Shown: piece after piece, positions 32,115-38,858 of the stretch
Layout: the number at the start of each line of letters is the position of its first letter
How positions within the stretch are numbered: position 1 is the first letter of the stretch
Source: a phage
Direction: 5' to 3' (one strand)
Sequence record: PZ445449.1
DNA length: 64,000 nucleotides
Notes under the pieces: generated by a model
What the model saw: only the letters and a program-made list of their open reading frames with translations
Told to the model about the DNA's origin: nothing
Databases searched by the model: none
Position numbers and translations under genes: made by a program

Positions 32115-32778
32115 CTGGAGCAAGTATTTCACCTATCGCGACGGCAAACTGTTCTGGGCGTATACCGCAAAAGCCGGAAGGGGCAGGATCATACATTACG
32201 CAGGTGAGGAGGCCACAGGCACAGATAAAGATGGCTATAGAGTAATAAATGTGTCAGGTGTTGGGAGTGTTCGTAGGCATAGAATAATTTGGGAGATGCA
32301 TTACGGAGAGATACCTGAAGGTCTTGTTGTGCGGCACAAGAACGACATGGCAGGGGATGATAGGATAGAGAACTTAGTCCTAGGGACACAGGGTGATAAT
32401 GCACGAGACATGATCTACAGTGACAAGCTGAACATTAATAATACCTCAGGGTATCGTGGCGTGCGCTATCATAGAGGTATAAAAAGATGGACTGCATCTG
32501 CTGGAGACATATACTTAGGGTGTTTTAAGACAAAAGAGGATGCAATTGCATGCAGAAAGTTATGGGAGAAGGGAAAATTCGTCCCGCAAGAATTAGATGT
32601 TAGAAACACTAGCGGTGTGACAGGGGTGTTCTATGTGCCGAGCTCTGGAAGGTGGAGAGTCCGAGTGCAAAGCGGCAAAAAGAGAAAGAGCTATGGCACT
32701 TACAACACTTTAGAAGAAGCAAAAGCTGTAAGGGATAAAGTGATGAAAGATATTGAGGAGTTTAAAGATGGGGAATAA
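32107..32778 (+). CDS. HNH homing endonuclease with AP2-type DNA-binding repeats
   Basis: 223 aa; HNH_3-type segment HRIIWEMHYGEIPEGLVVRHKNDMAGDDRIENL; two SGYRGV / SGVTGV ... W AP2-like repeats. Confidence 0.7.
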   Translation: MVDWSKYFTYRDGKLFWAYTAKAGRGRIIHYAGEEATGTDKDGYRVINVSGVGSVRRHRIIWEMHYGEIPEGLVVRHKNDMAGDDRIENLVLGTQGDNARDMIYSDKLNINNTSGYRGVRYHRGIKRWTASAGDIYLGCFKTKEDAIACRKLWEKGKFVPQELDVRNTSGVTGVFYVPSSGRWRVRVQSGKKRKSYGTYNTLEEAKAVRDKVMKDIEEFKDGE

Positions 32779-34846
32779 GTTTATACCCTCTGCATATAAC
32801 CGCTATGGAGAACCTAACCCAGTTGCAACAAGATACAAAAGCGGAGGTAGTATGAAACGAGACTATCGAGATGAAAAAGAGGTTGAAACCGTAGAGACCG
32901 TTTTAGAAAATACTAAAATTGTCCCTGTCCCACAACAAAATATCGGTCTAATGGCTGCACAATATTTTGGTGTGCGATCAGCATTGTCCCAAGAAGATGG
33001 TGTGACAGTGACTGCAACATATTTCCCATATTACGACCGCTACGGAAATCTGTCCGGTTTCAAAAAGCGTGATTGGTCTAAGCCAAAAGAGCAGAAAGGG
33101 CACTGGTCTGTGGTAGGCATAGTAAAGGCTAACTCCCAGATGTTTGGTCAAAAGCTGTGTGCATCTTCCAACAACCGTAAGCAGATTAACGTTTGTGAGG
33201 GAGAAGGTGATGTTATTGCAGCATGGCAGGCTGCATATCAGATACAAGTAAAAGGGATTCTCACCAACGCTAAAGCCCCGGCAAAGGTGAAGCAGTGGGC
33301 TAAAGAGGTCCAGGACGGAATCGATGCAGTTATCAACGGTGGTGATCTGGCAGGAAAACCCTGCCTGCCTTTTGTTGGAATTAACTGTGGATGTGCAAAC
33401 GCAGTAGATACTTTTGCAAACAATGAGAAGTTTATCCGTAGCTATGGAACAGTTGTGCTGGCAATGGATAACGATGCAGCTAACGAGGTAGAGAAGCAAA
33501 AACACGTCATTAAAGGTGTTGAGGCCACGCACAATATCGCAGCATTTTTGATGGCTGATAACGTTTACCACGTAGAATACCCTGGTGAAGTAAATGACCC
33601 TGACGGTGTAAAAGATATCCGAGACATGCTGAAGGCTAAAAAGCTGGAAGATATTGTCAACATGTTCCGGCACCCTGTTAAATATGTGCCTGATGCTGTG
33701 TCGGATTTAGAAGACTTCTCTATCGAGTCTTTGCGGAAAAAGACTTCCAACGGGGTAGATATCAGTGCAGAGTTCCCAAAACTGCAAAAAATGCTAAAAG
33801 GCTTGCACAAAGGGACACTTGTAATGCTTACAGGTCCATCAGGCGGCGGTAAAACAACCGTGGCTAAAAAACTGGAACACTGTATTGCAAGATACCTAAT
33901 GGACCCGACATGCCCGAAGGCCGATGACTATGAAGAGGATGATCGTCTATGCATGATCCATCTTGAGGAGGATCCAGAGGAAGCAATTAACTCCTTGTAT
34001 GCAAACCAGTTAGGGTTTGATGTTAAAGAGTTTGTTGAAGATCCTAGCCAGTTTTTAACTGATCAAGAACACGCAGAGATTCACCAATCATGGGCAAAAG
34101 CTGGAAAAATCAAAGTGTTCAAACATTTCGGGTCTATTCCGGTGGACGAGTTGATTACCAAGCTTAAGCAAATGGTTTGCCTGTACCATTGTCGTTATAT
34201 TGTGCTGGATCACCTGTCCATGGTAATTTCAGGGCTTAATGTTAAGGATGAGCGAAAAGAACTGGACATGGCTATGACCCAACTGGCTGCGTTTTGTAAG
34301 CAGTTTAACGTGTTTATCTTGGTGATCGCTCACCTCAAACGTACAGAGATTGTGCCCCCTAAGGACAAGGATGGTAACCCATTACCTTTCTGGTATCCTG
34401 TGCGAAAAGAGAATTTGCGAGGATCGGCTGGGCTTGAACAGTTGAGTTGGGTAGTCATAGGTGTCGAGGCCGAAGAAATGGTGGATCGTTCTCGTGGACG
34501 TGTCCGTCTGGTAGGTCTTAAAAACCGTCCAGCAAAAACTTTAGGTATTGCTGACACTTTAGTTATGGATCCGCATACAGGTAAGTTCCACGATGCCAGT
34601 AATTGGTACTGGGACAAAGAAATGCAGATGTTCACAGACGGAGAAGGTGGGGAGGTTGTTTGGAGACCTCAGGCTATGTTTGAGGATCAGGAGCATGCAG
34701 TTGTAGAAACACCTATGGGCAAGGTTGTGGCTGATAAGGTTGTAACACCCACTGTCAAGCCTATTGACACGCAGGAAGACCTCCAATACGATGATCCATC
34801 CTCTGATCCGGTCCCTGGTTTTGAGGATGATGAAACACCTTTTTAA
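32768..34846 (+). CDS. bifunctional DNA primase-helicase (T7 gp4-like)
   Basis: TOPRIM-like VCEGEGDVIAAW in N-terminal half; DnaB-family Walker A LTGPSGGGKTT and H4-like region in C-terminal half; ATG 32768 with AGGAG RBS. Confidence 0.75.
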   Translation: MGNKFIPSAYNRYGEPNPVATRYKSGGSMKRDYRDEKEVETVETVLENTKIVPVPQQNIGLMAAQYFGVRSALSQEDGVTVTATYFPYYDRYGNLSGFKKRDWSKPKEQKGHWSVVGIVKANSQMFGQKLCASSNNRKQINVCEGEGDVIAAWQAAYQIQVKGILTNAKAPAKVKQWAKEVQDGIDAVINGGDLAGKPCLPFVGINCGCANAVDTFANNEKFIRSYGTVVLAMDNDAANEVEKQKHVIKGVEATHNIAAFLMADNVYHVEYPGEVNDPDGVKDIRDMLKAKKLEDIVNMFRHPVKYVPDAVSDLEDFSIESLRKKTSNGVDISAEFPKLQKMLKGLHKGTLVMLTGPSGGGKTTVAKKLEHCIARYLMDPTCPKADDYEEDDRLCMIHLEEDPEEAINSLYANQLGFDVKEFVEDPSQFLTDQEHAEIHQSWAKAGKIKVFKHFGSIPVDELITKLKQMVCLYHCRYIVLDHLSMVISGLNVKDERKELDMAMTQLAAFCKQFNVFILVIAHLKRTEIVPPKDKDGNPLPFWYPVRKENLRGSAGLEQLSWVVIGVEAEEMVDRSRGRVRLVGLKNRPAKTLGIADTLVMDPHTGKFHDASNWYWDKEMQMFTDGEGGEVVWRPQAMFEDQEHAVVETPMGKVVADKVVTPTVKPIDTQEDLQYDDPSSDPVPGFEDDETPF

Positions 34847-34904
34847 TGTTTAACAAAGAGTGGGAGGGGTAGTACAACCGCCTCCCCTTTAAGGAGAACT
34901 GTAT

Positions 34905-37328
34905 ATGAGCATGTGGTCGTTCGATTTTGAGTCATCCGGTTTGCTGGAAGACCCAGATCTTTATTATCACTGCGGTCTGTTTAAAGAGCTGAATAAGAAC
35001 CGTTTTATGCTGTTCCTTCCTCTAAATGACCGCACACACTACTCCGAGGAGGATATAGAAAAGGCTAAGAACTTCATTCTGGCAAAGAAAACTCTTTATA
35101 AAGATTTTGAAGTTCGCATAGCAGATTTTTCGGAGTTGGAAGGTTGGCTTACAGGCAATTCTGACTGGTCACCAACAGCTTTGAACTGCCATAACTGCTA
35201 CAGTTATGACTTTATGCTGATGGAAAGATTATCCGGTATTCATTTTGATATGTTCCGTGATCCTAAATGCATGGGAACTATCAACGACCACCAGGTTAAC
35301 CTGTTTGATACGTTGGCGATGAGCCGAATCTTGTGGCCTGATCGCCCTTTACCAAAAGGTTGTCCGGACTCTGTATTCAACCCGGTTACTAAGAAAATGC
35401 AGCCTGTTGGTCCTCACGGCCTTATGGCATGGGGCTACGCCCTTGGTAACCAGAAAGTTCAAATTGATGACTGGCGCGATCTTCCGTTGTGGAAGTATGT
35501 GGATCGTGTATTCGAGGACGTTATCATCCAGGAGCTGCTCTGGAAAGAGCTGGTAGCGGAATCAAAAGGTGTATTCTACGGCAAATCTGACATGCAGAAC
35601 TTTATGTACGATCCAGCCAAAGAGAAGCCGAAAGGGTTCAAGAAAATCACCTGGAAGAACGCATTACGCCGAGGCATGCTGCAGCACTTCCTGATGGAGC
35701 TGCAGGCCCGTCAGGGTGTGTATTTCGACATAGATGGGGCTATTGCTTTACGTGACCGTTGCGATGCGTGGATGAAAGAGATCGCTGATCGTGTTGAACC
35801 TCAACTTCCTTTAAAAGAGTTGTCAATGTCTCAGCGGCCAAAGTTCCCTGAAAAGCCGTTTAACCAAGATGGGACAATCTCCAATAATGGTTGGAAATGG
35901 TTAAAAGATAAGCTTGGCTATCCTGTAGACATGAGCGCTTTAGAATTCAAAGCCCCGCCTAAGCGAGCATTTACCTCCACAGGAGATGTCAGCAAGATGG
36001 GGATAAAATGGTGTGAAGAGATGGGCTGCAAAGACCCAGACAAGATGGCTGATTTCTTGAGAGGTTATATTAAGGGCACCTCCACACCACAACCTTTACC
36101 TAAAGAGCTGATGGATCAGGCAATAAGTGATCTGCAGCAGAAGCGAATGCCTGACTGCAAGATACCTATGAAAATCAGCAATCAGGACGACATTAAGCGA
36201 TACCTGATCAGTGCTGGTTGGCTTCCGACAATGTGGAGAACTAAGGATGTAACTAAGGACAGCAAGAAGAAAGCTCTACCTGATGCAGATGTTGATGCAC
36301 GAGTATATGCATACATGGACGAGCTTTTAGAGTCAGAGTATTGTGACCTAATTATCAACTTCTGGAACAAAACTGATGCTAAGTTTCAGACAACAGTGCA
36401 CAAGTTCCGAAGCTTTCCTAACTCCGAAAGGATTAAAAAGGAAGTGTTCGGGAAAATACGCAGAAAAGCCAGGGCACTTATTACTTCTCCGCAACTGAAA
36501 GATACGTTTGGACACCTATGTCCGAATCTTGAAAAATTGAACGGAGAGATGGCTAAAGATATCGTCTTGTGGTTATCATTGCGAAACCGCAGATCGGTCC
36601 TTGATCCAATCAAGGAGGATAAGGTTGATACTGGTCTTCTTAATCACCCACGTTTGAAGATTGACCATAAGCTTCCTGCTAAAAGCTCTGGATTAACAAA
36701 CACTTCCCGACAGAAACACAGTATTTGTGCAAACATGCCTAAACCATCTCCTAAAGTGGTTATGGGTAAAGAGATGCGTAGCTTGTGGGGTGTTCCTCCT
36801 GGATACTTTGAGATCGGTATTGACGGGTCCAACTTAGAGCAGCTTATCGGGGCTTGGGGTGCCTTTGAGTTCGACAACGGCTTGTACTATGATGTTGTAA
36901 GTAACGGGGACGCACACCAAAACAATGCTGAGGCATATACAAAAGTAGCAGGCAGAGAGGTGTCTCGTAACGACGGTAAACCTATCACGTATGGGGTTAT
37001 GTACGGGGCACAAAAAGATAAAGTTGCAGATATGCTGGATATCTCCCCAGAGTTGGGGCAAAGGGTGATCGATGCACTTTGGGATGCCAACCCCGGTCTT
37101 AAGGGGCGCAAAGAGGATCTGGAGAAATTCTGGGAAGCAACAGGTAAGAAGTTTATCTACTCTTTTGATGGTCATGCTATCTGGACCCGATCTAAACACT
37201 CTTTACTTAATGCATACCAACAAAATGGTGGTGCATCGCTGTGTGACTTAGTTGGGATACTCATGCACCACCAAATGGTGAAGCGTGGGTGGTACGATGA
37301 AGGTGTCCGTCGTATTATCTATTACCAT
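34905..37328 (+). CDS. DNA polymerase family A, exon 1 (exonuclease and polymerase motifs A and B)
   Basis: Exo I FDFESSG; motif A IDGSNLEQL; motif B KPITYGVMYGAQ; ORF ends ...RIIYYH then K-stop exactly where motif C (HDE) is expected. Confidence 0.75.
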
Positions 37329-38170
37329 AAATAACATTGTGGCTTCGTGCAGTGATGCACGTCGAAAACCTCTTTAATTGACGGGAAGGCTAAGTTGACT
37401 TTTACACCTAAACATGGTAAAAGCTCAATATGCTAATCCGCAGCGAAGACTAAAGGGGTGTAGTTAAAATGGCTAGATCAGCTGATTATCACGGATATAC
37501 CGTGTTTGATGATGGAACAATACCTTTATCGAAACGTGATCATACAACAATGTTTTGTTTTGATAATGGTCGAGGTTACCTTTGCGTAACCATGCTCATT
37601 GAGGGGAAGCAGTGCACAAAAGGTGTCCACCACTTGGTTGCTGAATGCTTTGTATCAAACCCTGATCCTGAAAAGCTCACATGGGTGAACCATAAGGACG
37701 GAAACAAGTACAACAATGCATACTGGAACCTTGAATGGACCACCCCTGGTGGAAATATCAAACACGCCTATGATAATGACCTCAGAGTAAGGCCAGTTGG
37801 TGAGTATAATGCCAACGCTGTGCTGACCGAGGATGAGGTAATGGAGATTTGTGAACTGTTGCAGAGTGGTCTACGACAATGGGAGATTAGGGATCTTGGG
37901 TATCCTTATGAGACGGTCAGAGCCATAAAGCAAAGAAGACAGTGGAAACATATCTCTAAAAACTACACCTGGTAGTAACGTTCAGAGACTATCGAAAGCA
38001 TAGCTCCAACATAGTTTGGTGTGAAGAAGCGAGTAGAGTAGGCCAGCAAGTGCGGTCGAAATGAGAGGTGCCTTGGTAACAAGGTAGTGAGATAGTCCGA
38101 TCCATACAGGAAACCGTATGGCTGTGCACGTAATGGTGCGGGGTAGCTTAACGACCTACCTGAACTATTG
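37329..38170 (+). mobile_element. candidate group I intron carrying an HNH homing endonuclease gene, inserted in the DNA polymerase gene
   Basis: 842-nt insertion between ...YYH (last exon-1 nt is T) and DEYQLQV...; last inserted nt is G; contains free-standing HNH ORF 37469-37975. Confidence 0.55.
37469..37975 (+). CDS. HNH homing endonuclease (insertion-encoded)
   Basis: 168 aa; HNH_3 motif VNHKDGNKYNNAYWNLEWTT; AAAGGGG RBS. Confidence 0.7.
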   Translation: MARSADYHGYTVFDDGTIPLSKRDHTTMFCFDNGRGYLCVTMLIEGKQCTKGVHHLVAECFVSNPDPEKLTWVNHKDGNKYNNAYWNLEWTTPGGNIKHAYDNDLRVRPVGEYNANAVLTEDEVMEICELLQSGLRQWEIRDLGYPYETVRAIKQRRQWKHISKNYTW

Positions 38171-38524
38171 GATGAGTACCAACTTCAAGTCCCTGACACG
38201 CCTAAGTATAAGACTGTGTACACCTTCGACACAATCGAAGAACTGGAAGCATTTAAGGCAGAGCAGGAGGCCAAACTTCATGTGTTCGACGGTCATAAGT
38301 ACAAAAAGGCACGCAAGGATGAGGACGGAAACGAAGTGGTTGACAGAGACGGAAACACGGTGTACGATCCTATCCTGAACGATGACGGAAAGCTTGAACT
38401 TATCTGGAGCCCTGTGGGTGAAATGGTGGTGCATTGCTTCTGGCAAGCTTCTAAAATGATGGGCGTCCCGTTCCAGATCACAGGTGAATACCTGTGTGGT
38501 CGTAATTGGGGTGATTGTCACTAA
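38171..38524 (+). CDS. DNA polymerase family A, exon 2 (motif C to C-terminus)
   Basis: Frame opens just upstream and reads DEYQLQV...; C-terminus ...GRNWGDCH resembles T7 DNA polymerase terminus ...GPNWAICH as recalled from memory. Confidence 0.6.
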   Translation, partial: DEYQLQVPDTPKYKTVYTFDTIEELEAFKAEQEAKLHVFDGHKYKKARKDEDGNEVVDRDGNTVYDPILNDDGKLELIWSPVGEMVVHCFWQASKMMGVPFQITGEYLCGRNWGDCH

Positions 38525-38573
38525 TGTAAACTATCAACACATGGAAGTGTTGTTGAGCAAAGAGGAGACTTTT

Positions 38574-38858
38574 ATGGTAGTAGAACCAACAAAAACATTT
38601 ACATCCATGACTATCCCTGTTATTATGCAGGTGGAGTGTGTTCAGGTATCTCAAGTGTGGCCAGGCACTAAAATCCCAACAGGGCCTGATTTCTTTCAGG
38701 TTGGGAAAGTGTACAATGTCTGGAAGGCACCAAATTGCTACCCTTTCATCAAAGATGACCGTGGAATGCTGTGGTATCTTGGAAATGATTTGACACTGCA
38801 CCTTGGGAATGCTATTATTGCAGTATTCAGACTTAACAAGAAGGAGACCGATCAATGA
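38574..38858 (+). CDS. small protein, paralog family A
   Basis: ATG 38574 with AGAGGAG RBS; KDDRGMLWYLGND motif shared with next two ORFs. Confidence 0.45.
   Translation: MVVEPTKTFTSMTIPVIMQVECVQVSQVWPGTKIPTGPDFFQVGKVYNVWKAPNCYPFIKDDRGMLWYLGNDLTLHLGNAIIAVFRLNKKETDQ

Follow-up and report, generated by a model that had tools for sequence, protein, structure and literature searches.

The question raised by this locus is how a phage obtains a complete DNA polymerase from a gene that is interrupted within catalytic motif C. The window, i.e. the whole stretch of 64,000 nucleotides analysed (sequence record PZ445449.1), belongs to a Vequintavirus (rV5-like E. coli phage). Its polymerase ORF at 34905-37334 encoded 809 aa and terminated in ...GVRRIIYYHK followed by TAA; the His codon CAT has its T at position 37328. 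The original prediction had pointed to this stop one codon after ...RRIIYYH and to a frame opening as DEYQLQV some 840 nt downstream and running to ...GRNWGDCH; both were confirmed, the second frame starting at 38171 behind an insertion of 842 nt. This insertion (37329-38170) is very probably a mobile, IA2-like group I intron with an HNH homing-endonuclease gene, the splicing of which would restore the polymerase. The main parts of the locus were as follows.

34905-37328, plus strand: exon 1 of the family-A (T7-like) DNA polymerase gene, residues 1-808, ending ...RRIIYYH (from the ORF list)
37329-38170, plus strand: group I intron, 842 nt, probably of an IA2-like subgroup (exact boundaries from intron-less alleles; RF00028; covariation)
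37469-37975, plus strand: putative HNH homing-endonuclease gene, I-HmuI-like, 168 aa (complete ORF in the P6a loop)
38171-38524, plus strand: exon 2 of the DNA polymerase gene, residues 809-925, DEYQLQV...GRNWGDCH, then stop

The insertion corresponds exactly to 37329-38170, because related intron-less phages, a comparison that had been proposed, read straight across the site. Intron-less alleles of closely related phages read ...TATTACCAT|GATGAGTAC..., the same sequence as that given by excision of 37329-38170, and near-identical phages without the insertion read further across the site as ...TATTACCAT|GATGAGTACCAAC.... The boundaries (first bases AAATAAC, last bases ...CTATTG) are not a matter of judgement, since the intron-less alleles are known and the flanking bases permit no shift. 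An in-frame UAA is located at 37332-37334, two codons into the intron. The insertion separates the His codon of motif C from the Asp codon next to it (H|DE; H653|D654 in T7), this His being what we take to be position 881 of E. coli Pol I (Klenow numbering).

Intron-less, ORF-less and ORF-bearing alleles of this site coexist, and the flanking exons of the phages concerned are 90-99% identical. Among coliphage isolates the three occurred at roughly 50:25:25, respectively; JohannBauhin and pangalan are examples of phages with an intron-less allele. Natural alleles comprised sites with no intron, ORF-less introns of 254-329 nt and introns of ~690-920 nt with three endonuclease arrangements. The core of one ORF-less allele, JLBYU08, was 91-94% identical to the window copy.

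The polymerase gene is restored by exact removal of 37329-38170. As predicted, joining 37328 to 38171 gave an in-frame product, which is 925 aa long and has IIYYHDEYQLQVPDTPK as its expected junction peptide. Exon 2 opens with GAT GAG TAC (DEY...) at 38171 and stops at 38524; in intron-less phages it follows exon 1 uninterrupted, and the genes there also encode 925 aa. Exon 1 matched Pfam DNA_pol_A and T7 DNA polymerase entries of the PDB (E 7e-16). When the joined protein was aligned to T7 DNA polymerase, the alignment spanned the junction and ran through HDE, with YYHDEYQL over WVHDEIQV (T7 H653-D654-E655; E 7e-16). A profile alignment (7-sequence profile, E 1.8e-26) also crossed the junction, by ~20 residues at most. 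The DNA_pol_A match grew from profile positions 137-261 to 137-348 on joining, the joined protein scoring 31.8 bits, just under the 34.3 cut-off. Motif C HDE is contiguous with motifs A and B only once the exons are joined, exon 1 alone stopping before Asp and Glu. The resemblance to the C-terminus of T7 polymerase that had been claimed found no support in sequence searches: neither exon 2 alone nor the last 45 residues matched T7 polymerase or another polymerase among PDB sequences. The C-terminal His was invariant in seven aligned relatives.

The group I nature of the insertion, first proposed from the sequence, was supported by its precision, a U.G pair in P1, a terminal G, P10, a match to RF00028 and a covarying core. 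The covariance-model search gave a full-length RF00028 match at 37319-38120, which covered all 253 model positions and accommodated the ORF in a peripheral loop (33 bits, E 1.3e-4) and was the sole match in 64 kb. The RF00028 gathering threshold is 50 bits; a whole-window Rfam scan at gathering threshold returned no matches, and the intron surfaced only with an E-value threshold. ORF-less alleles at the same site scored 64.7-91.2 bits (JLBYU08 among them), and the sub-threshold score of the window copy is consistent with an effect of its 510-nt ORF insertion.

Covariation was assessed in 12 introns that occupy the same site and represent six phage groups, aligned by sequence only (MAFFT) with ORFs deleted. 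Base pairs were formed in 96.3% of pair cells, and 30 of the 65 pairs were compensatory, i.e. changed on both sides. None of 500 shuffles matched the observed pairing and covariation, and slid controls were 35-41% paired. P4 was partly misaligned in this alignment and its pairing is therefore under-counted. On either side of the ORF, non-coding sequence totalling ~335 nt was conserved as a group I fold via compensatory changes. The minimum-energy fold of the ORF-deleted core recovered P1, P2, P3, P5, P8, P9, P9.1 and P9.2 and was no stabler than that of shuffled sequence (z = -0.70); the element would not have been flagged by stability alone. Scanning 37000-38700 for promoters and terminators gave no signal inside the intron in excess of shuffled expectation. 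The structural elements were located as follows.

37325-37342, plus strand: P1 hairpin, exon CCAU and intron AA (37325-37330) paired with guide UUGUGG (37337-37342)
37346-37361, plus strand: P2 hairpin, CGUGCA-GUGA-UGCACG, six of six pairs changing on both sides, 100% paired in the 12 introns
37368-37374, plus strand: P3 5' strand ACCUCUU, partner GAGAGGU at 38063-38069, three pairs compensatory
37379-37442, plus strand: P4-P5-P5a/b domain, P4 UG(A)CGGG/UCCGCA, P5 GGC/GCU, same architecture in 12 of 12 segment folds
37394-37429, plus strand: 12-bp extension hairpin of the P4-P5 domain, from segment folds
37443-37981, plus strand: P6 and P6a, P6 being GCG (37443-37445) with CGU (37979-37981), covarying; endonuclease gene in the P6a loop
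37987-37991, plus strand: P7 5' strand GACUA, partner UAGUC at 38093-38097, forming a pseudoknot with P3
37992-38057, plus strand: P7.1 region (37992-38037), GUA linker (38038-38040) and P7.2 hairpin (38041-38057)
38063-38069, plus strand: P3 3' strand GAGAGGU, pairing with 37368-37374
38070-38085, plus strand: P8 hairpin GCCUUG-GUAA-CAAGGU, five of six pairs compensatory
38093-38097, plus strand: P7 3' strand UAGUC, inside the conserved J8/7-P7 block GAGAUAGUCC
38102-38161, plus strand: hairpins P9 (38102-38121), P9.1 (38125-38140) and P9.2 (38141-38161)
38170, plus strand: terminal G (omega G) at the 3' splice site, intron-final G in 12 of 12 same-site introns

All core helices from P1 to P9.2, the P3/P7 pseudoknot included, were present in the window copy, in line with the folding that had been anticipated. 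The earlier remark that the insertion follows a T and ends in G corresponds to U37328 and G38170. U37328.G37339 is a wobble pair at the 5' splice site, inside CCAUAA/UUGUGG; it was invariant in the 12 introns, in all of which the P1 helix was 100% paired. A single guide, CAUUGUGG, base-pairs with the end of exon 1 and with the start of exon 2, its P1 and P10 parts being contiguous. The P10 part (CAUU, 37335-37338) pairs with GAUG, the first four nt of exon 2, and P10 comprised four bp in 10 of the 12 introns. P7 was 100% paired throughout the set, with a swap from U-A to C-G in three introns.

The 510-nt insertion was placed in the P6a loop by the Rfam alignment, where ORF-less alleles display a 5-bp hairpin. 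The P6a stem of the window copy was built from ORF-end sequences (ACUA..GGUG at 37449-37460 with CACC..UAGU at 37966-37976), its exact register being uncertain. According to PMC3428280, subgroup IA2 is recognised by two additional helices, P7.1 and P7.2, which lie between P7 and P3' and are connected by G-U-A. All 12 introns contained the GUA linker as well as a P7.2 that covaries; P7.1 folds as a clean GNRA-capped hairpin in short alleles, whereas the corresponding region of the window copy is longer (46 nt) and of ambiguous fold.

The HNH gene, the only ORF inside the insertion, was complete, as had been predicted along with its own ribosome binding site: a Shine-Dalgarno-like AAGGGG at 37453-37458, possibly partly paired, lies 10 nt upstream of the ATG. 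Judged from its sequence, the product appears to belong to the I-HmuI-like HNH homing endonucleases. It matched PHROG 59 'HNH endonuclease' (E 3.9e-37), PDB 1u3e (I-HmuI) over the HNH motif (E 3.3e-5, ~65 residues) and, weakly, Pfam HNH_3 (18.1 bits against a cut-off of 24.8). With the motif defined by a His general base and a downstream Asn, ...VHHLVAECF...VNHKDGNKYNNAYWNLEW aligned to VHRLVAIHF...VDHKDGNKDNNLSTNLRW of I-HmuI. An Asn aligned with Asp74 of I-HmuI (VNHKDGN), and endonuclease activity is therefore not assured. The ORF was intact in four of four close alleles, which showed 7-10 synonymous and five non-synonymous codon differences. Homologous HNH ORFs were found in P6a of introns from five other phages.

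The intron is already known, having been annotated or experimentally shown in close relatives. WalterGehring (MZ501111, joined CDS) carries an intron 97.9% identical over all 842 nt, with the same HNH ORF, while LL12 (MH491969, 'intron-interrupted gene') and MaxTheCat (MZ501094, joined CDS) display a 276-nt ORF-less allele. Gene, codon position and intron core are in these three phages the same as in the window, with base differences of a few percent; their joins are homology-based annotation. Pectobacterium phage vB_PatM_CB7 (Certrevirus, Vequintavirinae) has the identical insertion point (..RRIIYYH|DEYQLEV..), between CB7_51 and CB7_49, with a homologous P1, P2, P3 and P7-P9.2 core and the same guide sequence. 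Splicing of this CB7 polymerase intron was shown by RT-PCR and Sanger sequencing (PMC7344957); for the phage of the window we infer splicing. CB7 differs by a second, upstream polymerase intron, which the window lacks, and by its HNH protein: CB7_50 is a different one, starting in the P5 extension and spanning the P4 3' strand and P6, in contrast to the position in P6a found here.

Introns at this polymerase site in T7-like phages were reportedly described by Bonocora & Shub in 2004. Those of the T7-like phages PhiI and W31 (AY769989 and AY769990) are placed by PMC3428280 at position 881 of E. coli Pol I and in subgroup IA2, with an HNH ORF in P6a; site, class and ORF location in these podoviruses would accordingly be as in the window. 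Phages SPO1, SP82 and Bastille also have group I introns in a family-A polymerase, encoding the nicking HNH endonucleases I-HmuI, I-HmuII and I-BasI, respectively. Their hosts are Gram-positive, and their site differs (position 674, in the fingers, according to PMC3428280). The HNH protein of the window and I-HmuI are 168 and 174 aa long, with similarity confined to ~65 residues (E 3e-5). A weak match in a coliphage contig of 43 kb proved to represent another group I intron, which occupies a different site in a different family-A polymerase and is not of the PhiI/W31 type.

The element would function as follows. The polymerase gene would be transcribed as a single pre-mRNA; in unspliced RNA, translation would halt at the UAA, giving an 809-aa product devoid of catalytic Asp and Glu. 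Folded as a P1-P10 ribozyme, the intron would pair its internal guide 5'-CAUUGUGG-3' with CCAU at the end of exon 1 (through U.G at the splice site) and with GAUG at the start of exon 2. Free guanosine would attack after U37328, then the freed 3'-OH of exon 1 would attack after G38170, and joining of the exons (...YYH-DEYQLQV...) would yield the full 925-aa polymerase. We likewise infer endonuclease activity and homing for the 168-aa HNH protein: in mixed infections it would nick or cut polymerase alleles that lack the intron, close to where the intron inserts, and repair of the cut allele would copy the intron in. Such homing would explain the coexistence of intron-less, ORF-less and ORF-bearing alleles among near-identical phages.

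An alternative is an insertion of the HNH gene that does not splice, the polymerase being produced in two pieces of 809 aa and 117 aa that assemble post-translationally; NrdA of Aeromonas phage Aeh1, split by mobE, is the precedent. Many GenBank records, that of the closest relative APECc02 included, indeed show two separate 'DNA polymerase' CDSs flanking the HNH gene, a TTG at 38168 opens an ORF across exon 2, and one HNH-associated insertion in another CB7 gene failed to splice (PMC7344957). This TTG, however, lacks an upstream Shine-Dalgarno sequence (ACCTGAACTA), and the break separates the His from the metal-binding Asp of motif C. Two polypeptides are moreover hard to reconcile with the retention of the ~335 nt flanking the HNH ORF as a covarying group I fold and with splicing of the homologous CB7 intron (PMC7344957). 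ORF-less versions of 254-329 nt exist at the same site, and insertion of an endonuclease gene fails to explain them. This model is extremely improbable. Phage replication genes also harbour inteins and group II introns within conserved motifs, and CB7 carries inteins in other genes (PMC7344957). An intein was rejected on account of the in-frame UAA at the second intron codon and of the separately arranged HNH ORF with its own start; a group II intron was rejected since no group II family matched 37250-38250 at E up to 10 and no reverse-transcriptase ORF was present. The probability of either is negligible.

The element could also be a group I intron by descent that has lost splicing or homing and is decaying. 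The RF00028 score under the gathering threshold, the ambiguous P7.1 and the Asn at the Asp74 position of I-HmuI would fit such decay, as would ORF-less introns in about a quarter of the sampled relatives, expected if endonuclease genes are being lost. A splicing-dead intron would nevertheless be lethal, because the stop lies two codons in, within the only polymerase gene seen; and ~30 isolated, plaque-forming phages carry the allele of the window at 95-99% identity. Every core helix is intact in the window copy and the HNH ORF is uninterrupted in the four close alleles. Decay is on these grounds very unlikely, while endonuclease activity alone may have been lost, with splicing kept. A mobile group I intron that splices remains the preferred reading.

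More tentatively, and rather doubtfully at present, the H|DE intron might represent one horizontally spreading lineage, the peripheral loops of which would be interchangeable docking sites for unrelated endonuclease genes. Its members may include Vequintavirinae, Plateaulakevirus (Aeromonas), Pakpunavirus (Pseudomonas), a Vibrio myophage and possibly T7-like phages. If so, the 50:25:25 split of alleles would reflect ongoing interference competition between co-infecting phages and not neutral parasitism.

The main value of these results concerns annotation. In place of a single spliced gene, many rV5-like phage records show a polymerase cut short, an HNH gene and a small ORF designated 'hypothetical' or 'DNA polymerase'; the closest relative (in its RefSeq entry) and the type genome, rV5, are among them. 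The records of APECc02, rV5_ev146 and FV3 leave the polymerase as two CDSs. In the rV5 genome paper, terminase is the only gene for which introns are mentioned and the polymerase is given as 775 aa; the LL12 paper is silent on the intron. Such misannotation alters gene counts, pangenomes and polymerase phylogenies. The finding opens no new question and adds a further instance to a class already well understood, in which mobile group I introns bearing HNH endonucleases occupy conserved motifs of genes for phage replication. The natural alleles gathered at this one site could serve studies of homing endonuclease gain and loss and, the genus being therapeutic, of phage-phage competition.

The loops of introns at this site were found to be differently occupied: by an HNH gene in P6a, by a LAGLIDADG gene in the P7.1-P7.2 region of PVP-SE1 and by a different HNH gene across P5-P6 in CB7.

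As judged from its sequence, the phage is a Vequintavirus, an rV5-like myophage of E. coli. About 118 phage records matched 36900-38600 of the window in a search of the phage collection, and the best matches were Escherichia phage APECc02 (98.6 %), WalterGehring, I29 and rV5 derivatives, all of them Vequintavirus. The polymerase and its insertion belong to the replication module, directly 3' of the primase-helicase gene (32753-34846). WalterGehring (record L001) displayed a free-standing 'putative homing endonuclease' gene (275-1009) between the primase-helicase and polymerase genes, where the window had only a 58-nt spacer (34847-34904). Around 16 unannotated records (MG0656xx) named 'Campylobacter phage', host C. 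jejuni, were 94-98 % identical to E. coli Vequintaviruses at the polymerase locus; they look mislabelled, or like coliphage contaminating those preparations.

The insertion is interpreted, with high confidence, as a standard mobile group I intron in the polymerase gene. The interrupted gene was composed as follows:
34905-37334: ORF of exon 1 and the first intron codons, 809 aa, ending ...GVRRIIYYHK, then TAA
37329-38170: insertion, 842 nt, starting AAATAAC, last bases CTATTG
37469-37975: complete HNH ORF, 168 aa, with AAGGGG 10 nt 5' of its ATG
38171-38524 (stop): exon 2 frame, starting GAT GAG TAC, DEYQLQV...GRNWGDCH

The break one codon after ...RRIIYYH, the downstream frame and its in-frame restoration by joining 37328 (T of the His codon) to 38171 were all found as originally predicted. 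The joined product was 925 aa long, and intron-less polymerase genes likewise comprised 925 codons. Its alignment to T7 DNA polymerase crossed the junction (YYHDEYQL versus WVHDEIQV, T7 H653-D654-E655; E 7e-16), bearing out the expected kinship with family-A polymerases, and a seven-sequence profile of the polymerase reached E 1.8e-26. The interrupted HDE motif is presumably the same as His881-Asp882-Glu883 in Klenow numbering. Exon 1 alone matched Pfam DNA_pol_A up to profile position 261, the joined exons up to 348. The C-terminal histidine was invariant in all seven aligned relatives. A search with exon 2 alone did not support the proposed resemblance of the C-terminus to that of T7 DNA polymerase: it gave no T7 polymerase match, owing to an extra stretch of at most ~50 aa behind the HDE motif. 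This insertion (KYKKARKDEDGNEVVDRDGNTVYDPILNDDG in the window) accounted for exon 2 lengths of 67 to 117 aa across phages.

Natural alleles were surveyed by comparing the joined exons with the phage collection and typing an evenly spaced 60 of the 116 matching records by match span. The site was continuous in 29, and insertions of 276, 329 and 842 nt were found in 14, one and 16 records, respectively. Intron-less alleles such as that of JohannBauhin (...TATTACCAT/GATGAGTACCAAC..., slash at the site) fixed the insertion at exactly 37329-38170, following T37328 and ending in G38170 as proposed; its end bases permitted no shift of these boundaries. Both shorter insertions were the same element without ORF, with a 5-bp hairpin at the position of the HNH gene. 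These four states occurred among near-identical Vequintaviruses (window versus records L003-L006). The 329-nt allele (JLBYU08) resembled the window intron with its ORF cleanly swapped for a CAUCC-GAGA-GGAUG hairpin. Flanking exons were 90-99 % identical between phages with empty, ORF-less and ORF-bearing sites, and this coexistence agrees with the cycle of gain and loss usual for such endonuclease genes in homing elements.

Searched against Rfam at gathering thresholds, the whole window gave no match. At an E-value threshold, the group I model RF00028 (Intron_gpI) was the sole match in 64 kb (37319-38120, 33 bits, E 1.3e-4 over the whole window), covering 253 of 253 model positions and placing 510 inserted nt in the P6 loop. 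Same-site alleles lacking the ORF scored above the 50-bit threshold (TH18 91.2, Vibrio phage K460 77.3, JLBYU08 72.5 and MaxTheCat 64.7 bits) and the JLBYU08 core was 91-94 % identical to that of the window; the ORF insertion is thus the best explanation for the low score of the window copy. The P1-P9 fold anticipated in the original prediction was located together with P9.1, P9.2 and P10:
37325-37330 with 37337-37342: P1, exon CCAU and intron AA with UUGUGG; wobble pair U37328.G37339 at the 5' splice site
37335-37338 with the first four bases of exon 2: P10, CAUU with GAUG
37346-37361: P2
37368-37374 with 38063-38069: P3
37379-37442: P4-P5 and a 12-bp P5 extension
37443-37445 with 37979-37981: P6
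37987-37991 with 38093-38097: P7, crossing P3 in the usual pseudoknot
37992-38057: P7.1 region, GUA linker and P7.2
38070-38085: P8
38102-38161: P9, P9.1 and P9.2
38170: G, 3' end of the intron

Since CAUU lies just 5' of the exon-1-pairing GUGG, a single guide CAUUGUGG aligns both exons through eight contiguous base pairs. Conserved junctions GUUCAGAGACUA and GAGAUAGUCC agreed with Rfam consensus blocks. Subgroup IA2 is assigned in the literature by P7.1 and P7.2 joined through GUA (PMC3428280); the P7.1 fold was ambiguous in the window copy, and the intron is therefore called only IA2-like.

The fold was examined in the window and 11 introns at the same YH/DE codon boundary, from Vequintavirinae of E. 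coli (MaxTheCat, JLBYU08, TH18, LTH01), Seunavirus (GEC_vB_MG, PVP-SE1), Certrevirus (CB7, CR9), Plateaulakevirus (Aeromonas phiA009), Pakpunavirus (Pseudomonas SPA01) and Vibrio phage K460. ORF insertions were removed, the introns were aligned by sequence alone, and the 65 pairs of the window structure were counted on this alignment. Standard pairs occupied 96.3 % of cells (mean of 500 shuffles 84.2 %; 35-41 % with the partner slid by one to three columns), and 30 of the 65 pairs were changed on both sides (mean of the shuffles 16.6; slid 2-11); no shuffle reached either value. All six P2 pairs were changed on both sides without pairing ever being lost, and P3, P6, P7, P7.2, P8, P9, P9.1 and P9.2 each displayed compensatory swaps. 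Segments folded independently gave the same architecture in almost all introns, and most helices were recovered when the whole core, with its ORF deleted, was folded to minimum energy. This core displayed no unusual stability (z = -0.70); support for the fold comes from covariation, not stability. Among the 12 introns, the stems of P9.1 and P9.2 covaried but the loops of P9.1 (GUAAUG, 38130-38135) and P9.2 (CUUAACGAC, 38147-38155) hardly changed, a pattern suggestive of tertiary contacts.

Sister genomes already carry an annotation of the element, and a relative provides experimental validation. Splicing of the CB7 intron between CB7_51 and CB7_49 was shown by RT-PCR and Sanger sequencing (PMC7344957); its insertion site was identical to that of the window (..RRIIYYH/DEYQLEV..) and its core homologous. 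The LL12 GenBank record joins the exons ('intron-interrupted gene; intron splice site predicted based on homology'), and in WalterGehring and MaxTheCat the CDS is in two pieces and shorter than its span by 842 and 276 nt, respectively. A passage of PMC3428280, citing Bonocora & Shub 2004, reports that polymerase introns of the T7-like phages PhiI and W31 belong to subgroup IA2, are inserted at Pol I position 881 and carry an HNH ORF in P6a. Two polymerase CDSs stand in the records of rV5_ev146, FV3 and APECc02 (RefSeq), the last of which also lists an HNH gene. Annotation of the type phage rV5 is inconsistent: its genome (NC_011041 / DQ832317) harbored the 276-nt allele at 126785-127060, although the rV5 paper gives the polymerase as 775 aa and speaks of introns solely for the terminase gene. 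The practical value of the present result is the correction of such inconsistent annotation.

Under the proposed mechanism, the polymerase gene would be transcribed through the intron, and unspliced RNA would yield an 809-aa protein ending at UAA 37332-37334, without the catalytic Asp and Glu. In all nine same-site introns whose exon-1 frame was translated, the second intron codon was an in-frame stop. The ribozyme core would fold, guanosine would attack after U37328, exon 1 would then attack after G38170, and the ligated mRNA would encode the 925-aa enzyme. Homing would take place in mixed infections: intron-less alleles, nicked or cut by the HNH protein, would acquire the intron during repair. 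Both splicing and homing in the window phage are inferences.

A polymerase divided into two polypeptides is contradicted by the absence of a ribosome-binding site before exon 2, the position of the break inside the catalytic triad (as originally argued), ~335 nt of non-coding RNA structure under selection and ORF-less alleles at the same site. That the intron is a relic which no longer splices is unlikely, since ~30 viable isolates carry the window's allele. The stop codon, together with a lack of RNA or protein features of the expected kind, rules out an intein and a group II intron. The mobile group I intron might also harbor an inactive endonuclease. Three close alleles retained an intact HNH ORF; codon differences numbered 7-10 synonymous versus five non-synonymous.

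The HNH gene, complete and with a putative ribosome-binding site of its own as first described, encoded a protein matching PHROG 59 'HNH endonuclease' (E 3.9e-37) and the structure of I-HmuI (1u3e, E 3.3e-5), the homing endonuclease that is encoded by the polymerase intron of SPO1 and acts by nicking. The aligned motif was VNHKDGNKYNNAYWNLEW in the window and VDHKDGNKDNNLSTNLRW in I-HmuI. Promoter and terminator signals inside the intron did not exceed chance. Homologous HNH proteins were encoded in P6a of the introns of LTH01, GEC_vB_MG, CR9, phiA009 and SPA01. In Salmonella phage PVP-SE1 (L010), the homologous intron (~601-1519, same H/DE site, 54.4 bits with RF00028) shared the ribozyme core but differed in endonuclease family and occupied loop, with a LAGLIDADG gene (ORF 792-1385) in the P7.1-P7.2 region and a short hairpin as P6a. 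The same-site intron of Pectobacterium phage CB7 (L012, 1950-2636) carried an HNH ORF, CB7_50, unrelated in sequence to that of the window. CB7_50 starts within the P5 extension and extends across the 3' strand of P4 and P6, its codons thus also forming core helices of the ribozyme.

A second group I intron match was found further upstream in the polymerase genes of TH18 (L007, 14-217, 47.5 bits) and CB7 (895-1565, 47.0 bits); the window lacked an insertion there, as exon 1 was one continuous 809-aa ORF. A contig of Escherichia phage ECO104 4-5-2 (L016) harbored a different group I intron (1350-2036, 51 bits with RF00028) with a 180-aa ORF displaying an HNH-like motif near its C-terminus. The polymerase it interrupted was another member of family A, and the site differed too (...RLSASNP / ...QQLPRE); of this intron, only the P9 region was similar to the window intron.
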